Source: a virus. From it: DNA of 64,000 nucleotides. Positions 1 to 11,119 of the stretch are shown piece after piece. The translations under genes were made by a program, and so were the position numbers. The stretch spans positions 1-64,000 of the IMG/VR virus record IMGVR_UViG_3300031963_000066, one strand, 5' to 3'. The notes beneath the pieces are model-generated. The model was not told the origin of the DNA. It saw nothing but the letters and a program-made list of their open reading frames with translations, and searched no databases. Positions within the stretch are counted from its first letter, which is position 1, and each line of letters begins with the position of its first letter.

Positions 1-38
1 ATGCGTCCATACACGATACCTTGATAACACTAAACAAA

Positions 39-113
39 TGGTACACCTAAGGAGAATCGAACTCCTCTTTCCGCCTTGAAAGGGCAGCGTCCTAACCGAT
101 AGACGATAGGTGC
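39..113 (-). tRNA. tRNA-Glu(UUC)
   Basis: Reverse complement folds into a cloverleaf: GCACCTA/TAGGTGT acceptor stem, anticodon loop CT-TTC-AA, GTTCGATT T-loop, encoded CCA. Confidence 0.95.
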
Positions 114-116
114 ATT

Positions 117-141
117 AACTACAACAAATTTTTAAAGAACA
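117..141 (-). promoter_or_regulatory. boxA-like antitermination element upstream of tRNA-Glu
   Basis: Minus strand TGTTCTTTAAAAATTTGTTGTAGTT, an exact 25-bp repeat of 1617-1641. Resembles rrn boxA (TGCTCTTTAACA). Confidence 0.7.
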
Positions 142-166
142 TGTTGATTTCTCAACTCATGCATGT

Positions 167-194
167 AGTATAACACAACCAGAGGTTTTGTCAA
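167..194 (-). promoter_or_regulatory. sigma70-type promoter for downstream tRNAs
   Basis: TTGACA-16 bp-TATACT on the minus strand, followed by boxA and tRNA-Glu. Confidence 0.8.
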
Positions 195-229
195 CATCTA
201 TTTGCAAGTTGTTGTAAACATACAACACT

Positions 230-300
230 GTCATAAAGGTCGTAAAAACAACCTTTATAAACAAAAACCAGTCATAAAGGTCTTAAAAACAACCTTTATG
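230..300. repeat. two tandem ~30-bp copies of an inverted repeat (ATAAAGGT-N10-ACCTTTAT)
   Basis: gtcataaaggtcgtaaaaacaacctttat and gtcataaaggtcttaaaaacaacctttat. Confidence 0.85.
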
Positions 301-305
301 GAAAA

Positions 306-381
306 TGGAGTAGGTGACAGGAATCGAACCTGCATAAAACAGATTTGCAATCTGCTCCCTAGCCTTTCGGGTCACACCTAC
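306..381 (-). tRNA. tRNA-Cys(GCA)
   Basis: Cloverleaf with anticodon arm GCAGA-TTGCAAA-TCTGT, U73 discriminator and CCA. Confidence 0.95.
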
Positions 382-387
382 AAAATT

Positions 388-479
388 TGGTACCAGCGTA
401 GGGAATCGAACCCTATCAAGAACGCTAATCTGGCGCTAAAAGGTGTATAAGACCTCTCTGACTACCAAGTCTCGCTGGC
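388..479 (-). tRNA. atypical tRNA with UAU anticodon (nominally Ile), long variable arm and minimal D-loop
   Basis: Acceptor GCCAGCG/CGCTGGT-A-CCA, D arm GACT-TGGT-AGTC, anticodon arm AGAGGT-CTTATAC-ACCTTT, V-arm AGCGC/GCGTT, T arm TAGGG-TTCGATT-CCCTA. Confidence 0.8.
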
Positions 480-480
480 A

Positions 481-569
481 TGGAGGTGAGCATCGGTCTC
501 GATCCGAATCCGCTTAACGCAAACGAACTGCTTAGCAGGCAGTCTTAGGTCCCACCTAATTTACTCACC
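481..569 (-). tRNA. tRNA-Ser(GCU) with 8/4 acceptor/T-stem geometry
   Basis: 8-bp acceptor GGTGAGTA/TGCTCACC, 4-bp T-stem TCGG/CCGA, anticodon arm ACTGC-CTGCTAA-GCAGT, long V-arm, CCA. Confidence 0.85.
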
Positions 570-1225
570 ATAACTCTACCTTTGCGCCAACCTTTTGGTA
601 TCGCATCGGTTTTTTTAATTTTTACATTTTCAATTTCATTTGTTATCCACATAGAACCGTATTGAGAATTTTTTTCGCCGTCATGTTTTCCTAAAGCTGA
701 TAATCTCATTTGTTCTTTAGTTTTTTGACTATGTTTTCTACCGGGCCATATTTTGGATAATCTATTCACTACATTTTTTTTATATTCTTCATCAGTCTTA
801 AATTTATTTTTAACACCTTCACTCATTTTGGTTCTAATTTTTTTATCATAATTCTCATCTTCTAACATTTTTTTATTTCTAGTTATAACCATCATAGACA
901 TGTGTGTTTTTGAGTGTGATGGATTATCTTTCCAATTGTTTAAATAATCAAATCCACCAAGTCCACCAATTTTAAGATTATAAGTATTTTCTGTTGTTAA
1001 AAAATCTTCATTAACTAATTCAGCTTCTTTTGCATACATTGGTTCAGGACTATCATATACAAACAATATATCTTTGGCAAAATTTTCAATACCATATTTC
1101 TCTTGTGCTCGCATTAAATATTTTCCTGAACCCATGTAATTGTCGTTCAAATTTTTGGTCTTATGTGTTCCAATATAAATTTTGCCATCAATTTGATTTG
1201 TTATCTTATAAACAGTAAAAAACAT
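545..1225 (-). CDS. GIY-YIG (Seg-like) homing endonuclease with NUMOD3-type motif
   Basis: N-terminal VYKITNQIDGKIYIGTH..YMGSG; C-terminal GRKHSQKTKEQMR and GWRKGR; AGGAG RBS; located inside the tRNA cluster like T4 segB. Confidence 0.9.
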   Translation of the reverse strand: MFFTVYKITNQIDGKIYIGTHKTKNLNDNYMGSGKYLMRAQEKYGIENFAKDILFVYDSPEPMYAKEAELVNEDFLTTENTYNLKIGGLGGFDYLNNWKDNPSHSKTHMSMMVITRNKKMLEDENYDKKIRTKMSEGVKNKFKTDEEYKKNVVNRLSKIWPGRKHSQKTKEQMRLSALGKHDGEKNSQYGSMWITNEIENVKIKKTDAIPKGWRKGRVMVSKLGGT

Positions 1226-1281
1226 TTTTAATCTCCTTTTACTTTATATATAAGAGTTCGAGTTTCGACAAAACTCAAGGG

Positions 1282-1368
1282 TGGAAGCGGTGAGATTCGA
1301 ACTCACGGACCATTTCTGATCGGCAGTTTTCAAGACTGCTGCAATAAACCGGACTCTGCCACACTTCC
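1282..1368 (-). tRNA. tRNA-Ser(UGA)
   Basis: GGAAGTG/CGCTTCC acceptor, GCAGT-CTTGAAA-ACTGC anticodon arm, long V-arm. The 3' end reads A-CCC, so CCA is not encoded. Confidence 0.92.
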
Positions 1369-1380
1369 ATTAATTGTTGA

Positions 1381-1459
1381 TACATTATCCTTCACTCACT
1401 CACGGTGTCACCGTAACCAGCGGAAGTTAATAACCTGCTCATGCGTTACTAATAATGTA
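1381..1459 (-). ncRNA. putative small structured RNA B in tRNA operon
   Basis: Closed by TACATTAT/ATAATGTA, with internal hairpins (GTAAC..GTTAC, ACGGT-GAC-ACCGT). Confidence 0.4.
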
Positions 1460-1542
1460 CCATATTGAAACACACTTCGGATACTGTACTAAACAGAAAC
1501 TAACCGCCACGGCCTATGCCGCTGAAATGCATTTCAATATGG
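1460..1542 (-). ncRNA. putative small structured RNA A in tRNA operon
   Basis: 19-bp closing helix CCATATTGAAATGCATTTC/GAAGTGTGTTTCAATATGG (3 G-U pairs, only valid on the minus strand) enclosing a GCGGC-ATAG-GCCGT hairpin. Confidence 0.55.
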
Positions 1543-1613
1543 CACCCGAAATAAGAATCGAACTTATACTAACAGAGTCAAAGTCTGCTGTGCTGCCACT
1601 ACACCATTCGGGA
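1540..1613 (-). tRNA. tRNA-Gln(UUG)
   Basis: Cloverleaf with anticodon arm GCAGA-CTTTGAC-TCTGT, G73 and CCA. Confidence 0.95.
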
Positions 1614-1616
1614 ATA

Positions 1617-1641
1617 AACTACAACAAATTTTTAAAGAACA
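1617..1641 (-). promoter_or_regulatory. boxA-like antitermination element upstream of tRNA-Gln
   Basis: Identical to 117-141. Confidence 0.7.
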
Positions 1642-1648
1642 AGTGTGT

Positions 1649-1676
1649 ATTGTAACAGAACCAAAGGTCCTGGCAA
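1649..1676 (-). promoter_or_regulatory. sigma70-type promoter (weaker consensus)
   Basis: TTGCCA-16 bp-TACAAT, same layout as 167-194. Confidence 0.6.
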
Positions 1677-1703
1677 CTACACTGTTGTATTGAAACAACA
1701 AAC

Positions 1704-1733
1704 AAAAAACCCTAGATTTTTTAGGTCTAGGGT
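1704..1733 (-). terminator. intrinsic terminator (candidate attenuator)
   Basis: ACCCTAGA-loop-TCTAGGGT followed by a U-tract on the minus strand. Confidence 0.85.
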
Positions 1734-1766
1734 CTTGTGTTTGGAGTCTTTTTTAGAACTTCTGTT

Positions 1767-1880
1767 TTAACTCTCCATCTTCACACAAAACCCGGTTGTA
1801 ATTGCCCATGAGCTATCGGCGCAATTAACTGTGCGATACTCTGGTTGCAACATAAAGGGCTTATGGGATATGAGAGACAC
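1767..1880 (-). CDS. putative 37-aa leader (attenuator) peptide MSLISHKPFMLQPEYRTVNCADSSWAITTGFCVKMES
   Basis: GTG start after purine-rich TAGAAAG, TAA stop. All 20 amino acids present and first 27 codons non-redundant. Lies between a promoter and a terminator. Confidence 0.75.
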   Translation of the reverse strand: MSLISHKPFMLQPEYRTVNCADSSWAITTGFCVKMES

Positions 1881-1911
1881 TTTTTTCTTTCTAAAAATTA
1901 AATATGTTTGT

Positions 1912-1940
1912 ATTATATAGTAAACTTTAAGCCGTGGCAA
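1912..1940 (-). promoter_or_regulatory. sigma70-type promoter of the leader/tRNA operon
   Basis: TTGCCA-17 bp-TATAAT with an A-tract upstream. Confidence 0.8.
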
Positions 1941-1961
1941 GCGGTTTTTTAAAAATATTTT

Positions 1962-2471
1962 TTATATTTTTTTCCATGCTATGGGTGTATGTTTTATTGG
2001 GTCTGTTGGATTTTTGAAATCGTTAAAGATTTCCCATAAATTTTCAGATATGGCAAACTTTGTTAGTAGTCCAGTCTCACGGCCATAGGCATCTATTTCC
2101 CATGGTTGAACCCAATAGTCCACTTTGTCTGAGTTGATTTTTTTACCACGCCACTTGGACAATTGGTCATTCGTTTCATCCTGAATATATTGTTTGACAT
2201 GAACCATTTCATGGGCCAATGTTTCCAGTATTCTTCTGGAACCAATATGCGGATGAATTTCTATTAGAAATTTTCTTGGTTGTTTTCTTGTGTTGTATTC
2301 CTCAACACTTGCAAAACCATATTCTTTTATGTTTTCGTCAAATTTAATTTCCACGGAACAGTTGTTCCGTATTCTGGAGTTTGGTACGAGCTCTTTGGAA
2401 TAGAATAATGCGGCTCTTTCCACGAAAGGCTTAAAGTCTTTGTCTGGACAATTGACTACCTTAACAAGCAT
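1962..2471 (-). CDS. hypothetical protein with HExxH zinc-metalloprotease motif
   Basis: TLAHEMVHVKQY..PWEIDAY; GGAG RBS; CTAAATA late-promoter variant at ~2504-2510. Confidence 0.7.
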   Translation of the reverse strand: MLVKVVNCPDKDFKPFVERAALFYSKELVPNSRIRNNCSVEIKFDENIKEYGFASVEEYNTRKQPRKFLIEIHPHIGSRRILETLAHEMVHVKQYIQDETNDQLSKWRGKKINSDKVDYWVQPWEIDAYGRETGLLTKFAISENLWEIFNDFKNPTDPIKHTPIAWKKI

Positions 2472-2514
2472 GGGAACTCCTTTGGACGATAATGTCCCAT
2501 GCTTATTTAGAGTT

Positions 2515-3042
2515 TCACATCTTTTCCACTTTTTCCACTTTCACTCCTGCTTTTTCCAAGAATTGTAAGCCATCTTGGATACGATAACTATTGCGATAAT
2601 AAACACTACTGATACCAGATTGGTAAACAAGCTTGGCACAGTCCAAACAAGGTGCATGAGTAACAAAGAGGTGAGCACCAAGGCCAGATTCATTTGATCT
2701 TGCCAGCTTAGCGATTGCATTAGTTTCCGCATGTAATACCTCTGGTTTGGTTGTTAGTTTATAACGAAGCCATGGAAGGTCTTCAGTTTTTGGTAACTGT
2801 TGTTCACTCCATGGCCACTGTTCTTCAATTTCTTGAGGGGACAACCAACCACCCGCCGTTTGGTCCATATATTCTTTATCTTCACAGTTGTTATCCCAAC
2901 CTGATGGCATACCATTGTAACCAATAGATATAATTCTATCATCTTTGACTACAATGGCACCAACATGAAGTCTACGAGCCGTTGACAATCCTGCGAATGT
3001 CTCAGCCACTTTCATATACGCATCAATAAATTTTTGTTTCAT
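2515..3042 (-). CDS. cd: dCMP deaminase
   Basis: VGAIVVKDDRIISIGYNG, HAETNAI and PCLDC motifs. Confidence 0.95.
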   Translation of the reverse strand: MKQKFIDAYMKVAETFAGLSTARRLHVGAIVVKDDRIISIGYNGMPSGWDNNCEDKEYMDQTAGGWLSPQEIEEQWPWSEQQLPKTEDLPWLRYKLTTKPEVLHAETNAIAKLARSNESGLGAHLFVTHAPCLDCAKLVYQSGISSVYYRNSYRIQDGLQFLEKAGVKVEKVEKM

Positions 3043-3056
3043 ACATCACTTTCAAT

Positions 3057-3131
3057 TGGTGCCCGCAGATGGGATCGAACCACCACTCAAGGGATTATGA
3101 GTCCCCTGCTTTACCATTAAGCTATACGGGC
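3057..3131 (-). tRNA. tRNA with CAU anticodon, probably tRNA-Ile2 (lysidine type)
   Basis: Cloverleaf with GCAGGGGACTCATAATCCCTTG, resembling the bacterial Ile2 anticodon arm; A73 and CCA. Confidence 0.85.
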
Positions 3132-3132
3132 G

Positions 3133-3327
3133 TTATTTGACATATTCCAAAGAATCTTTACGCATCCACTTTAACATGCGGCCTCTAGGAATTGGTATCT
3201 GTTCCGCCACAGGCAGAAACAATACACCATCAATCTCTTTGGGATCCCAATCAGATTGAGTAAAATAGATTTCACTTGGGTTCAAGCGATTGCGTAATTT
3301 GCGAATGGAAGTTTTAACAGTTTTCAT
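3133..3327 (-). CDS. hypothetical protein
   Basis: ORF; ATG at 3327 lies just downstream of the promoter. Confidence 0.65.
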   Translation of the reverse strand: MKTVKTSIRKLRNRLNPSEIYFTQSDWDPKEIDGVLFLPVAEQIPIPRGRMLKWMRKDSLEYVK

Positions 3328-3336
3328 AATGACACC

Positions 3337-3371
3337 ATTATACAACAAAAAAAGGGGTCAGTCAAGACCCC
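3337..3371 (-). promoter_or_regulatory. overlapping intrinsic terminator and sigma70 promoter
   Basis: GGGGTC-TTGACT-GACCCC-T7; the loop is the -35 box, 17 bp from TATAAT (3337-3342). Confidence 0.8.
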
Positions 3372-3377
3372 TTACGG

Positions 3378-3464
3378 TTATCTACCTTTTAAGGTACGGT
3401 CCGTTCTGTGTTTTTTGATAGCCTCTATGGCTTCTAAGATGCTTGAAAGAAGTCTTTTAAACAT
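3378..3464 (-). CDS. small 28-aa hypothetical peptide
   Basis: MFKRLLSSILEAIEAIKKHRTDRTLKGR; start overlaps the hsp20 stop (TGATG); ends before the terminator. Confidence 0.45.
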   Translation of the reverse strand: MFKRLLSSILEAIEAIKKHRTDRTLKGR

Positions 3465-9853: not shown

Positions 9854-11119
9854 TTATCTACCTACCTGTCCTAAATATTTTTCTTTAGTCTGGTTCCAAT
9901 CCATGAATATCAAGTCATCATAGAACAATGATTCATAAGACACATTGTTCTTTTTCTTTAACATTGATATACGACCTTTGGCATATTTGGTTTTCCAAAT
10001 ATTTGCCAAGGTTTCAGGACTGGTATCAAATGATTTGACCAGTTCTTTATCACCAATCTCTTTTCTGAGATATTCACTGGTGTTATTGTAGAGAGGTGAA
10101 AAATAGATACCCCTCTGATGTTCAGTGCGAATCAATTCTTTTGGTATACTTAACTTGGAGTATGCAAAATTCAATGACCGGTTTTTGTGGTCACGCTTGA
10201 GTGGTAAACCATTTTGATTCTTGGCTTCCCACCATTCAAAATATTTACGAGTATGGTTTTCTTTGATCCAGTCAAAGACCATTTTCATAGTTTTCCTAGT
10301 GGGTTCGAAAGCAACTGACCCACTAGAAAATCCCATTTTGTTCCAATGTTCCAGGCCATCATATTGAGATAGACCATTAGACTTGGTATTACCATATAAA
10401 GAGGTTGTAGTGACGCCAACCAGTGTATCTCCATAACGAACCTTCCAATCATTTTGTACTGTATCAGACAGACACAACAATGCCAACAATTTGCCACCCA
10501 TATAATTAAATCCTAAAGGTTGCAGTGGTACAATCGTTGAACCGATTGCTGTGTGGTTAATCATTCCTTGTTGTGTCTTAACATCTCTTGCCCAACCGAT
10601 TGCAGAATCTCTTGGAGTTAAATCCAAGAAGTCGGACGATATGCAAATAACACCAAGGTATTTTCCAGATCGACCATCAACTACTGTGTAATACAAATTG
10701 CGGCCAATGTTACTATTGTTTTTCATTGTGGATGAAAATGTACGGATAGTATTCCAAGTTTCTGCACCGTCACCATTGGATAGTTGCAAAATAGGTTCTA
10801 GTTTTTCATAATCATCCGGACCTTCTGGCATCCAGAAATTCTTTTTAACCTTTTCGACTAATTTTTCTTGTGTCAAATCAATTAATTGTTTATCATCACC
10901 ATACAATGTGCTAATTGTGCGTGTCGGATATTTCTCCTGTACCTCACACCATTTCTGGTATAAAGTATACTCACGCACATCCATTTTAGATGCATAGGTT
11001 AAATTCTGAATGAGAGTTTCTTTTAATAACTCTGTGTCAATATGTTCAAATCGGGATGCATCGTTGGTTCTCGACCACACATCCCATTGAGCATCAACAT
11101 AATCTATAGGTGTTGCCAT
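9854..11119 (-). CDS. DruA/DUF4338-like protein
   Basis: IVPLQPLGFNYMGGKLLALL and VTTTSLYG..SQY motifs recalled from the DruA family. Confidence 0.55.
   Translation of the reverse strand: MATPIDYVDAQWDVWSRTNDASRFEHIDTELLKETLIQNLTYASKMDVREYTLYQKWCEVQEKYPTRTISTLYGDDKQLIDLTQEKLVEKVKKNFWMPEGPDDYEKLEPILQLSNGDGAETWNTIRTFSSTMKNNSNIGRNLYYTVVDGRSGKYLGVICISSDFLDLTPRDSAIGWARDVKTQQGMINHTAIGSTIVPLQPLGFNYMGGKLLALLCLSDTVQNDWKVRYGDTLVGVTTTSLYGNTKSNGLSQYDGLEHWNKMGFSSGSVAFEPTRKTMKMVFDWIKENHTRKYFEWWEAKNQNGLPLKRDHKNRSLNFAYSKLSIPKELIRTEHQRGIYFSPLYNNTSEYLRKEIGDKELVKSFDTSPETLANIWKTKYAKGRISMLKKKNNVSYESLFYDDLIFMDWNQTKEKYLGQVGR

Follow-up and report, generated by a model that had tools for sequence, protein, structure and literature searches.

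What sets the supply of the tRNAs that phages encode for themselves? Phage tRNA genes are usually viewed as constitutive cargo, carried for codon-usage compensation or for escape from tRNA-targeting defenses, and to our knowledge the regulation of their expression is essentially unknown. The question is raised by a stretch of 64,000 nucleotides (nt), hereafter the window, which covers positions 1 to 64,000 of IMG/VR record IMGVR_UViG_3300031963_000066 and comes from an uncultured, freshwater, T4-like phage. On its minus strand, a leader element made up of a promoter, a short open reading frame (ORF) and an intrinsic terminator lies between a SprT/WLM-like gene and a tRNA cluster. An initial annotation, made from the sequence alone, had proposed that the leader is translated and that competition between an antiterminator and a terminator in its RNA decides, ahead of the tRNA genes, whether transcription goes on. 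Computational and comparative tests support this core reading, in the form of a switch among three pairings (1:2, 2:3, and 3:4) with codon non-redundancy as the selected feature. We consider it probable that the phage tRNA operon begins with a trp-type transcription attenuator of the ribosome-mediated, leader-peptide kind, whose leader is non-redundant instead of having the usual run of codons. What was computed or seen here comprises the parts of the element, the conservation of its ORF, a frame-specific non-redundancy in the stall-sensitive part of that ORF, covarying alternative pairings, and adjacency to tRNA genes.

The leader element and what one ORF can tell

The element, all of it on the minus strand, opens with a sigma-70-type promoter (1912-1940) whose -35 box TTGCCA (1940-1935) and -10 box TATAAT (1917-1912), 17 nt apart, score 11 of 12 against the consensus; boxes and spacing are kept in relatives. 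Transcription is predicted to start near 1905. A weak Shine-Dalgarno-like GAAAG (1887-1891) stands 6 nt upstream of the GTG start of a 37-codon ORF (1767-1880, TAA stop at 1769-1767), the predicted product of which is (M/V)SLISHKPFMLQPEYRTVNCADSSWAITTGFCVKMES. All 20 amino acids (20/20) are present by codon 30, and codons 1 to 27 are all distinct, with the first repeat, ACA, at codon 28.

In the minimum-free-energy fold, region 1 (CCCATAAGCCC, codons 5 to 8, 1857-1867) pairs with region 2 (GGGTTTTGTGT, codons 30 to 33, 1783-1793) around an internal hairpin domain of the ORF, P2 (1801-1851), and the terminator follows. The base of P2, GAGTATCGC...GAT...CATGG, is nearly invariant and its tip varies in length; the domain is possibly a pause element or a scaffold. 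Region 2 is the strand common to two pairings, because its antiterminator partner is region 3 (1730-1746), which consists of ACACAAGACCC (1740-1730) and a CTCCA extension (1746-1742). Between 1793-1783 and 1740-1730 this antiterminator has 11/11 base pairs (-18.1 kcal/mol), and a second pairing joins TGGAG (1777-1773) to the CTCCA extension. The last 4 nt of region 3 are at the same time the beginning of the 5' arm of the intrinsic terminator (1703-1733), in which ACCCTAGA (1733-1726) pairs with TCTAGGGT (1716-1709) across a 9-nt loop ahead of a U-run (1708-1703). On re-check, the promoter, ORF, composition, antiterminator and terminator all proved exact at the coordinates first assigned to them, and the tRNA genes that had been placed 90 nt past the terminator do begin there, with tRNA-Gln(UUG) at 1540-1613 (ARAGORN and Rfam).

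By itself, the amino-acid diversity of the window ORF is within chance after multiple testing. Given the codon usage of the window, the per-ORF probability is 1.5e-5 for 27 different codons and 2e-5 for a full set of 20 amino acids within 30 codons. The 84.7-kb contig, however, has 334 arbitrary ORFs of 30 to 43 codons, one of which reaches 20 kinds of amino acid and another 19. Because the diversity of a single ORF is not beyond chance in this contig, the case rests on relatives, and it is conservation across homologous loci that lifts the composition above chance. An arbitrary 34-codon ORF at 10096-10200 (plus strand) likewise holds all 20 amino acids, in keeping with a chance expectation of one such ORF per contig.

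Frame and composition of the leader in relatives

We collected 80 IMG/VR loci through the neighboring SprT-like protein and added more by a DNA pattern scan. A nucleotide profile locates the element in 49 distinct loci, with 43 distinct peptides among them, and the family numbers about 60 sequences in all. A profile search of 1.84 billion protein representatives returned about 19 members, 14 of them new, and nothing else credible; gene callers often extend these members upstream through the promoter. No comparable ORF with a T-run was seen in 38 related loci that are without the element, and blastn and tblastn found no cultured-phage homologue in 50,697 phage records. In Stenotrophomonas phage DLP_6, the profile search gave noise only (E = 0.12, inside a 140-aa ORF), and no comparable short ORF was seen at the head of the tRNA cluster. 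The same phage (locus L205, ~102,930-103,060) has a tmRNA-like sequence with the frame ...ANDDSFAPMAIAA-stop just upstream of its 37-gene tRNA cluster.

The leader ORF is in frame in 49/49 distinct loci, at 30 to 43 codons, and the two alternative frames are interrupted by stops in 38/43 and 43/43 sequences. Differences in ORF length, including insertions in the P2 tip, are always multiples of 3, so that the frame is kept. About half of the relatives have GAAAG, GGAAG or GGAG 5 to 9 nt upstream of an ATG, GTG or TTG start. The other half have an ATG start 5 to 7 nt behind the -10 box, an arrangement that would give a leaderless or nearly leaderless mRNA. The stop codon lies 0 to 7 codons past region 2 across loci. 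Some relatives carry a 26-nt deletion that removes the GTG; a classification of these as non-coding RNAs that have lost the ORF was considered and rejected, since the ATG behind the -10 box opens the same frame.

These regularities bear on whether the element works without translation, as a riboswitch-like or a protein- or tRNA-binding leader with P1-P2 as its sensor, or as a trans-acting small RNA of about 200 nt, the ORF being incidental in each case. Such an RNA would account for the strong fold of the window transcript (-60.9 kcal/mol, z = -5.6 versus shuffles), and features of the element do recall known RNAs: an invariant stem base under a tip of variable length, as in aptamers, and, in the manner of riboswitch expression platforms, a P1 3' strand that also serves the antiterminator. 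Attenuator RNAs can also act in trans, as rnTrpL does (PMC7968998). A single frame open in 49/49 loci while the others contain stops is, however, not expected of a translation-independent RNA, which would not limit all insertions and deletions to multiples of 3, would not maintain two different kinds of start signal, and would not yield the frame-specific non-redundancy of amino acids and codons described below. Nor did the element match Rfam: in a cmscan of window positions 1-3400 at E <= 1, tRNAs alone matched, with no hit to the leader families (Trp_leader, His_leader, Leu_leader, Thr_leader) or to T-box. We regard a translation-independent RNA as very improbable.

In composition, a mean of 19.4 kinds of amino acid (start counted as Met) is found over the 43 distinct peptides, 25 of which have all 20 and 13 of which have 19, whereas random peptides of phage proteome composition have about 15. 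Depending on length, the chance of all 20 kinds is 1e-4 to 1e-3 with proteome composition and ~0.002-0.02 with uniform frequencies. The independent profile search gives the same picture: 11 of its 14 new peptides contain all 20 kinds and the other 3 contain 19, and the set includes an H/Q swap by which a lost Gln is restored. Because shared ancestry could account for such high diversity, we shuffled residues within alignment columns, a control that is no more than an approximation to a tree-aware null. Fifteen representatives with <60% identity have 19.33 kinds versus 17.69 ± 0.27 after column shuffling (0/20,000), and 9 representatives with <45% identity have 19.22 versus 17.6 ± 0.36 (0/10,000). 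Each lineage exceeds what its column compositions provide, and losses must therefore be made good elsewhere in the peptide. Individual substitutions fit this pattern: Cys is relocated from NC(A/G)D to ..ACEY.., to ..SCLTAEY.. or, in the FIGSD subfamily, to ..GGCG.., and His and Arg are swapped in position in relative L029. Among the three close relatives P0007, L004:5093-5200 and L128, the versions KHISFTLQ, KHISFTLH (Gln lost, 19 kinds) and KQISFTLH (20 kinds) all occur; in the last version, Gln is regained at the former His site, in what looks like a compensatory swap by single-base changes.

The diversity is specific to the frame and to one part of it. Read in frames +1 and +2, the same DNA gives merely 15.2 and 15.8 kinds. 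From residue 2 to a conserved Trp, the peptides hold 16.33 kinds versus 14.18 ± 0.28 in shuffled sets (0/10,000), and after that Trp there is no excess (8.13 versus 7.92 kinds, p = 0.2), which places all of it upstream of region 2. Codons are varied as well: when an amino acid recurs in a leader, 23.5% of the pairs share one codon versus 38.7 ± 2.7% expected from synonymous usage (0/2,000), and there are 0.844 distinct codons per codon versus a null of 0.691. Rather than a codon cluster for one or a few amino acids, the leaders carry non-redundant codons and mostly 19 to 20 kinds. The initial annotation had noticed the varied codons of repeated amino acids in the window and had suggested looking near the tRNA genes of relatives for short ORFs that stay non-redundant despite divergence; both hold for the family, with the ORF in frame in 49/49 loci. 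Its word "universal" goes too far: about two thirds of the leaders lack an internal Met codon, and the codons for Gly, Val and Trp are often found at region 2 or within it.

A conserved ORF could also mean a conserved product. Under this explanation the element would be a micro-protein gene, in which a peptide of 30 to 43 residues is expressed from its own promoter, the terminator insulates it from the tRNAs, and both the 2:3 complementarity and the amino-acid diversity are by-products. The ORF is indeed kept in all members, a central motif (E/Q)Y(R/H)T..D..(S/P)W...G is shared, promoter and terminator flank the ORF, and a separate tRNA promoter is found in most relatives. A micro-protein does not readily explain why the N- and C-terminal thirds of the peptide diverge beyond recognition and yet the number of kinds is maintained by compensation, and third codon positions that are invariant at TAT, GAT and CGC indicate constraint at the RNA level. 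Five diverse members searched at E <= 0.1 belong to no Pfam or PHROGs family. Together with two results given in the next section, a covarying region 2:3 pairing that competes specifically with the terminator and tRNA genes that abut the terminator without a promoter in 10 loci, this leaves a micro-protein gene rather improbable.

Alternative pairings and the tRNA genes downstream

A region 2:3 duplex can be drawn in 42/42 sequences, with 9 to 14 bp and -12.8 to -22.7 kcal/mol (mean, -16.9). Its region 3 side always comprises the first bases of the terminator 5' arm and those immediately ahead of them, and in the same 42/42 the 3' end of region 2 reaches no farther than 3 nt beyond the first base of the stop codon and stops at most 18 nt short of it. 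The two antiterminator strands co-vary between subfamilies (GGGUCUUAUGU with ACAUAAGACCC, GGGGUUGUGG with CCACAACCCC, GAGGUUAGAUGA with UCAAAUAACCUC, and GGUUUGUGUAUA with UAUACAAACC). In a MAFFT alignment that was not fitted to structure, 83% of antiterminator cells pair versus 26 to 62% when the partner strand is slid, and the covariation score is 0.122 versus 0.080 ± 0.009 (0/500). The terminator stem is paired in 90.5% of cells and has often changed on both sides at once; its T-run never varies. The covarying antiterminator and terminator pairs that the initial annotation proposed to look for are thus present in relatives. Region 1:2 duplexes are weaker (mean, -10.3 kcal/mol) and also show matched changes on both strands, for example, in L010 and L013. 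A weakly supported outer helix of the minimum-free-energy fold, in which only 62% of cells pair in relatives, joins TTTTTAGAA (1897-1889), just upstream of the start codon, to TTCTAAAAA (1750-1758) and may close the ribosome-binding region once the leader is complete.

We simulated stalling by folding only the RNA 3' of the ribosome footprint (A site plus 13 nt), with the U-run left out. Leaving out the U-run is the assumption that matters, and its rationale is that the U-run is within the RNA:DNA hybrid at the moment of decision. In the window, the terminator forms with a probability of 0.98 if no ribosome is present; the value drops to about 0 for A-site positions at codons 4 to 25 and is >= 0.9 from codon 27. 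In all family members it returns to ~1.0 with a ribosome in the last ~10 codons. With the ribosome stalled at codon 9, the probability averages 0.30 over the family versus 0.94 with a dinucleotide-shuffled upstream segment, and the value is below that control in 42/42 sequences (Wilcoxon p = 4.5e-13). Folding with and without the footprint therefore gives the expected behavior, in that the terminator is lost under a stall and returns with a ribosome near the stop. The earlier claim that a stall at "any earlier codon" allows read-through holds in the simulation for A-site codons ~4-25 of 37 and not for the rest.

The element is consistently placed next to tRNA genes. A same-strand tRNA gene lies 2 to 190 nt downstream in 45/45 loci with downstream sequence, and in 10 loci, from at least three subfamilies, the tRNA begins only 2 to 14 nt past the U-run. 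This gap leaves no space for another promoter, so that no other can feed these tRNAs. Relatives L023 and L065 have a boxA-like sequence alone, without a promoter, between terminator and tRNA. Metatranscriptome contigs add little: in a freshwater RNA library, contigs lie over 1783-1927 and an identical 120-nt contig (1637-1756) crosses the terminator, and in another RNA library one contig runs from the upstream gene across the promoter. Such contigs can show neither ends, strand nor level, and DNA carry-over is possible; the contig across the terminator is at best weak support for co-transcription, and we did not use them as evidence.

A proposed attenuator, its counterparts and its setting

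Put together, these elements suggest the following course of events. The early-type promoter (1940-1912) would start a transcript that opens with the 37-codon ORF, and region 1, in the 5' part of the ORF, would pair with region 2, in its last codons, for which region 3, including the first bases of the terminator 5' arm, is the alternative partner. Region 2 would be unavailable both in the absence of a ribosome and once one has come to the last ~10 codons or the stop; the terminator (1733-1703) would then form, and the tRNAs would not be reached. If the leading ribosome were delayed within about codons 4 to 25, region 1 would be unwound and region 2 free; the 2:3 antiterminator would then form first, and RNA polymerase would continue into the tRNA genes. 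Three parts of this scheme are inferences: that the ORF is translated, which way and when the switch turns, and what physiological trigger it answers to. Defense nucleases, starvation, or feedback from the phage's own tRNAs may provide the trigger.

The stall-sensitive part of the leader presents nearly each non-Met amino acid once and puts repeats on different codons, and a switch built on it would register how well the entire pool of tRNAs and amino acids supports decoding, rather than the supply of one amino acid. Its action would likely be homeostatic, with slow decoding giving more phage tRNA and fast decoding less. A further step is to regard the element as a "tRNA census," in which near-full amino-acid and varied-codon coverage has itself been selected and almost any shortage of charged tRNA raises phage tRNA transcription, which would make it the first leader-peptide attenuation of tRNA genes. 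Shortages could arise from codon-usage mismatch, host shut-off, starvation, or tRNA-cleaving defense nucleases. On this further step we are evenly divided.

Several observations weigh against attenuation as we propose it. If the U-run is left free to pair, equilibrium folding keeps the terminator in many relatives even under a stall; since equilibrium then favors the terminator, the switch must be kinetic. From the MAFFT alignment, RNAalifold recovered the terminator as the sole consensus structure; the support for P1, P2 and the antiterminator comes from per-sequence duplexes and pair counts. In five short relatives of the leaderless type, the terminator probability without a ribosome is 0.07 to 0.11, because region 1:2 is too weak to sequester region 2. 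Given the spacings, ~65 nt from region 1 to region 2 and ~40 nt from region 2 to region 3, fast translation could lead to efficient termination only through tight coupling or a pause. The conserved motif EYRT..D..SW leaves room for a function of the peptide. A leader with a single codon for each amino acid should respond only weakly, by the standard of classical leaders, when just one of them runs short. Finally, leader codons are not enriched for those read by the phage's tRNAs relative to other genes (fractions decoded, e.g., 0.74 versus 0.67 and 0.58 versus 0.58, with tRNA sets that are incomplete in the loci); the element may monitor host tRNAs, phage tRNAs or both.

A second promoter behind the terminator also weighs on this side. 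In the window, a consensus scan places TTGCCA-16-TACAAT at 1649-1676, and 32/45 relatives have such a promoter, which is absent in 13; in the window and the 32 loci it is followed by a boxA-like 25-mer (TGTTCTTTAAAAATTTGTTGTAGTT, 1617-1641 in the window, between the second promoter and tRNA-Gln). The second promoter would give basal tRNA transcription independent of the attenuator, which would add to it and not gate all of it. The initial annotation had the leader controlling the tRNA operon: the promoterless tRNA adjacency in 10 loci speaks for such control, and the promoter at 1676-1649 speaks against its being the sole control in the window.

Some of these points would suit a different signal read by the same parts, namely, whether translation is on or off (ribosome availability, coupling, host shut-off, or ribosome-targeting stress) and not the state of particular tRNAs. 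A ribosome in the first two thirds of the ORF would then bring read-through, and the lack of one, termination. The long forms do terminate without a ribosome, as the value of 0.98 for the window illustrates; a single codon per amino acid gives little leverage on any one tRNA; and codons read by the phage's tRNAs are not enriched. Broad upstream ORF (uORF) sensors exist, the whiB7 uORF answering many translation stresses (PMC10274678). An on/off sensor nevertheless has no reason for near-complete coverage and varied synonymous codons in the stall-sensitive part, and the short leaderless forms do not terminate by default. We judge it unlikely. Each of the rival explanations leaves unexplained at least one of three findings: the frame- and position-specific non-redundancy, the covarying antiterminator, or the promoterless tRNA adjacency.

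As a ribosome-mediated attenuator, the phage element would most resemble the enterobacterial leaders trpL, hisL, leuL, pheL, thrL and ilvL/ivbL. It shares with them a promoter-proximal short ORF with region 1 inside it, mutually exclusive 1:2, 2:3 and 3:4 structures, an intrinsic terminator before the controlled genes, and, here by computation only, the logic by which a ribosome at the end of the ORF gives the terminator and a lagging one the antiterminator. Unlike those leaders, it has no run of codons for a few amino acids and is instead maximally non-redundant, is phage-encoded, and controls tRNAs rather than biosynthetic enzymes. Its ORF spans region 2 and includes an extensive internal hairpin, the mRNA is apparently leaderless in about half of the family, and no sequence or Rfam similarity links the two.

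For breadth of response, the nearest functional analogue is the uORF attenuator of whiB7 (wblC) in mycobacteria and other Actinobacteria, which is activated by inhibiting genes for amino-acid biosynthesis, tRNAs, or tRNA synthetases (PMC10274678). There, too, uORF-dependent antitermination answers stalls of many causes. The whiB7 uORF, whose coding sequence sets which starvations are sensed, is enriched in alanine and controls a transcription factor (PMC10274678); the phage element has even amino-acid coverage and controls tRNA genes, and the sequences, one of them phage-borne, are unrelated. Stalling in a leader ORF likewise remodels downstream RNA and turns genes on in ermC/ermB and bmrB-bmrCD (PMC4191407), but in those systems drug-bound ribosomes stall at specific peptide motifs, whereas the phage leader has no evident arrest motif and it is composition that is conserved. 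T-box riboswitches sense tRNA status through competition between terminator and antiterminator, as we propose for the phage; they bind uncharged tRNA directly, without translation, through a specifier loop and T-box sequence, whereas the phage element has an ORF and no Rfam T-box match. In the literature we found neither an attenuator of phage tRNA genes nor a leader that covers all amino acids.

Upstream of the element, the minus strand carries the clamp loader genes gp44 and gp62, a regA-like gene, and a dCMP deaminase gene, followed by the SprT/WLM-like gene (169 aa, 1962-2471) that directly precedes the leader. Behind tRNA-Gln, the cluster continues on the same strand with tRNA-Ser (1279-1369), a GIY-YIG endonuclease ORF, and tRNAs Ile(UAU), Cys and Glu; the contig stops at window position 1, and the remainder of the cluster is missing from the record. 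The ~160 nt between tRNA-Gln and tRNA-Ser (1381-1540, minus strand) look structured and have no tRNA or Rfam call. The endonuclease-like ORF (226 aa, 545-1225, minus strand; N-terminal YKITN..GKIYIG) overlaps, at its 3' end, the stretch where relatives have a tRNA-Ser(GCU) gene. In relatives that gene directly precedes tRNA-Ile(UAU), and ARAGORN gives none in the window (481-569). The tRNA-Ile(UAU) itself (388-479, minus strand; ARAGORN) is 92 nt long with a long extra arm, has tRNA-Sec as its best, sub-threshold Rfam match (31.2 bits versus 47), and is kept at the same position in many relatives.

The 25-mer TGTTCTTTAAAAATTTGTTGTAGTT, whose core resembles rrn boxA, is repeated at 117-141 (minus strand), and each copy stands behind an internal promoter (1676-1649 and 194-167) and a few nt before a tRNA. 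Behind tRNA-Cys and ahead of the next promoter, two tandem near-identical hairpins (CATAAAGGTTGTTTTTAAGACCTTTATG and a variant; 205-300, minus strand) are probably tandem terminators. A tRNA with anticodon CAU lies away from the cluster, upstream of the leader promoter (3057-3131, minus strand), and an isolated CAU tRNA upstream of the leader promoter is found in nearly all relatives, whose leaders are mostly without an internal Met codon.

If the proposed attenuator is real, phages would gauge the decoding capacity of the cell with a translated test sequence and tune their tRNA supply accordingly. Leader-peptide attenuation, so far a matter of "one amino acid, one pathway," would come to include an aggregate sensor in which even coverage replaces codon runs and is visible as an unusual, testable evolutionary constraint on the composition of the peptide and not on its sequence. 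The element takes up only ~240 bp, with a generic sigma-70 promoter and an intrinsic terminator, and for that reason should be directly testable in laboratory bacteria; it could also serve as a compact reporter of translation stress.

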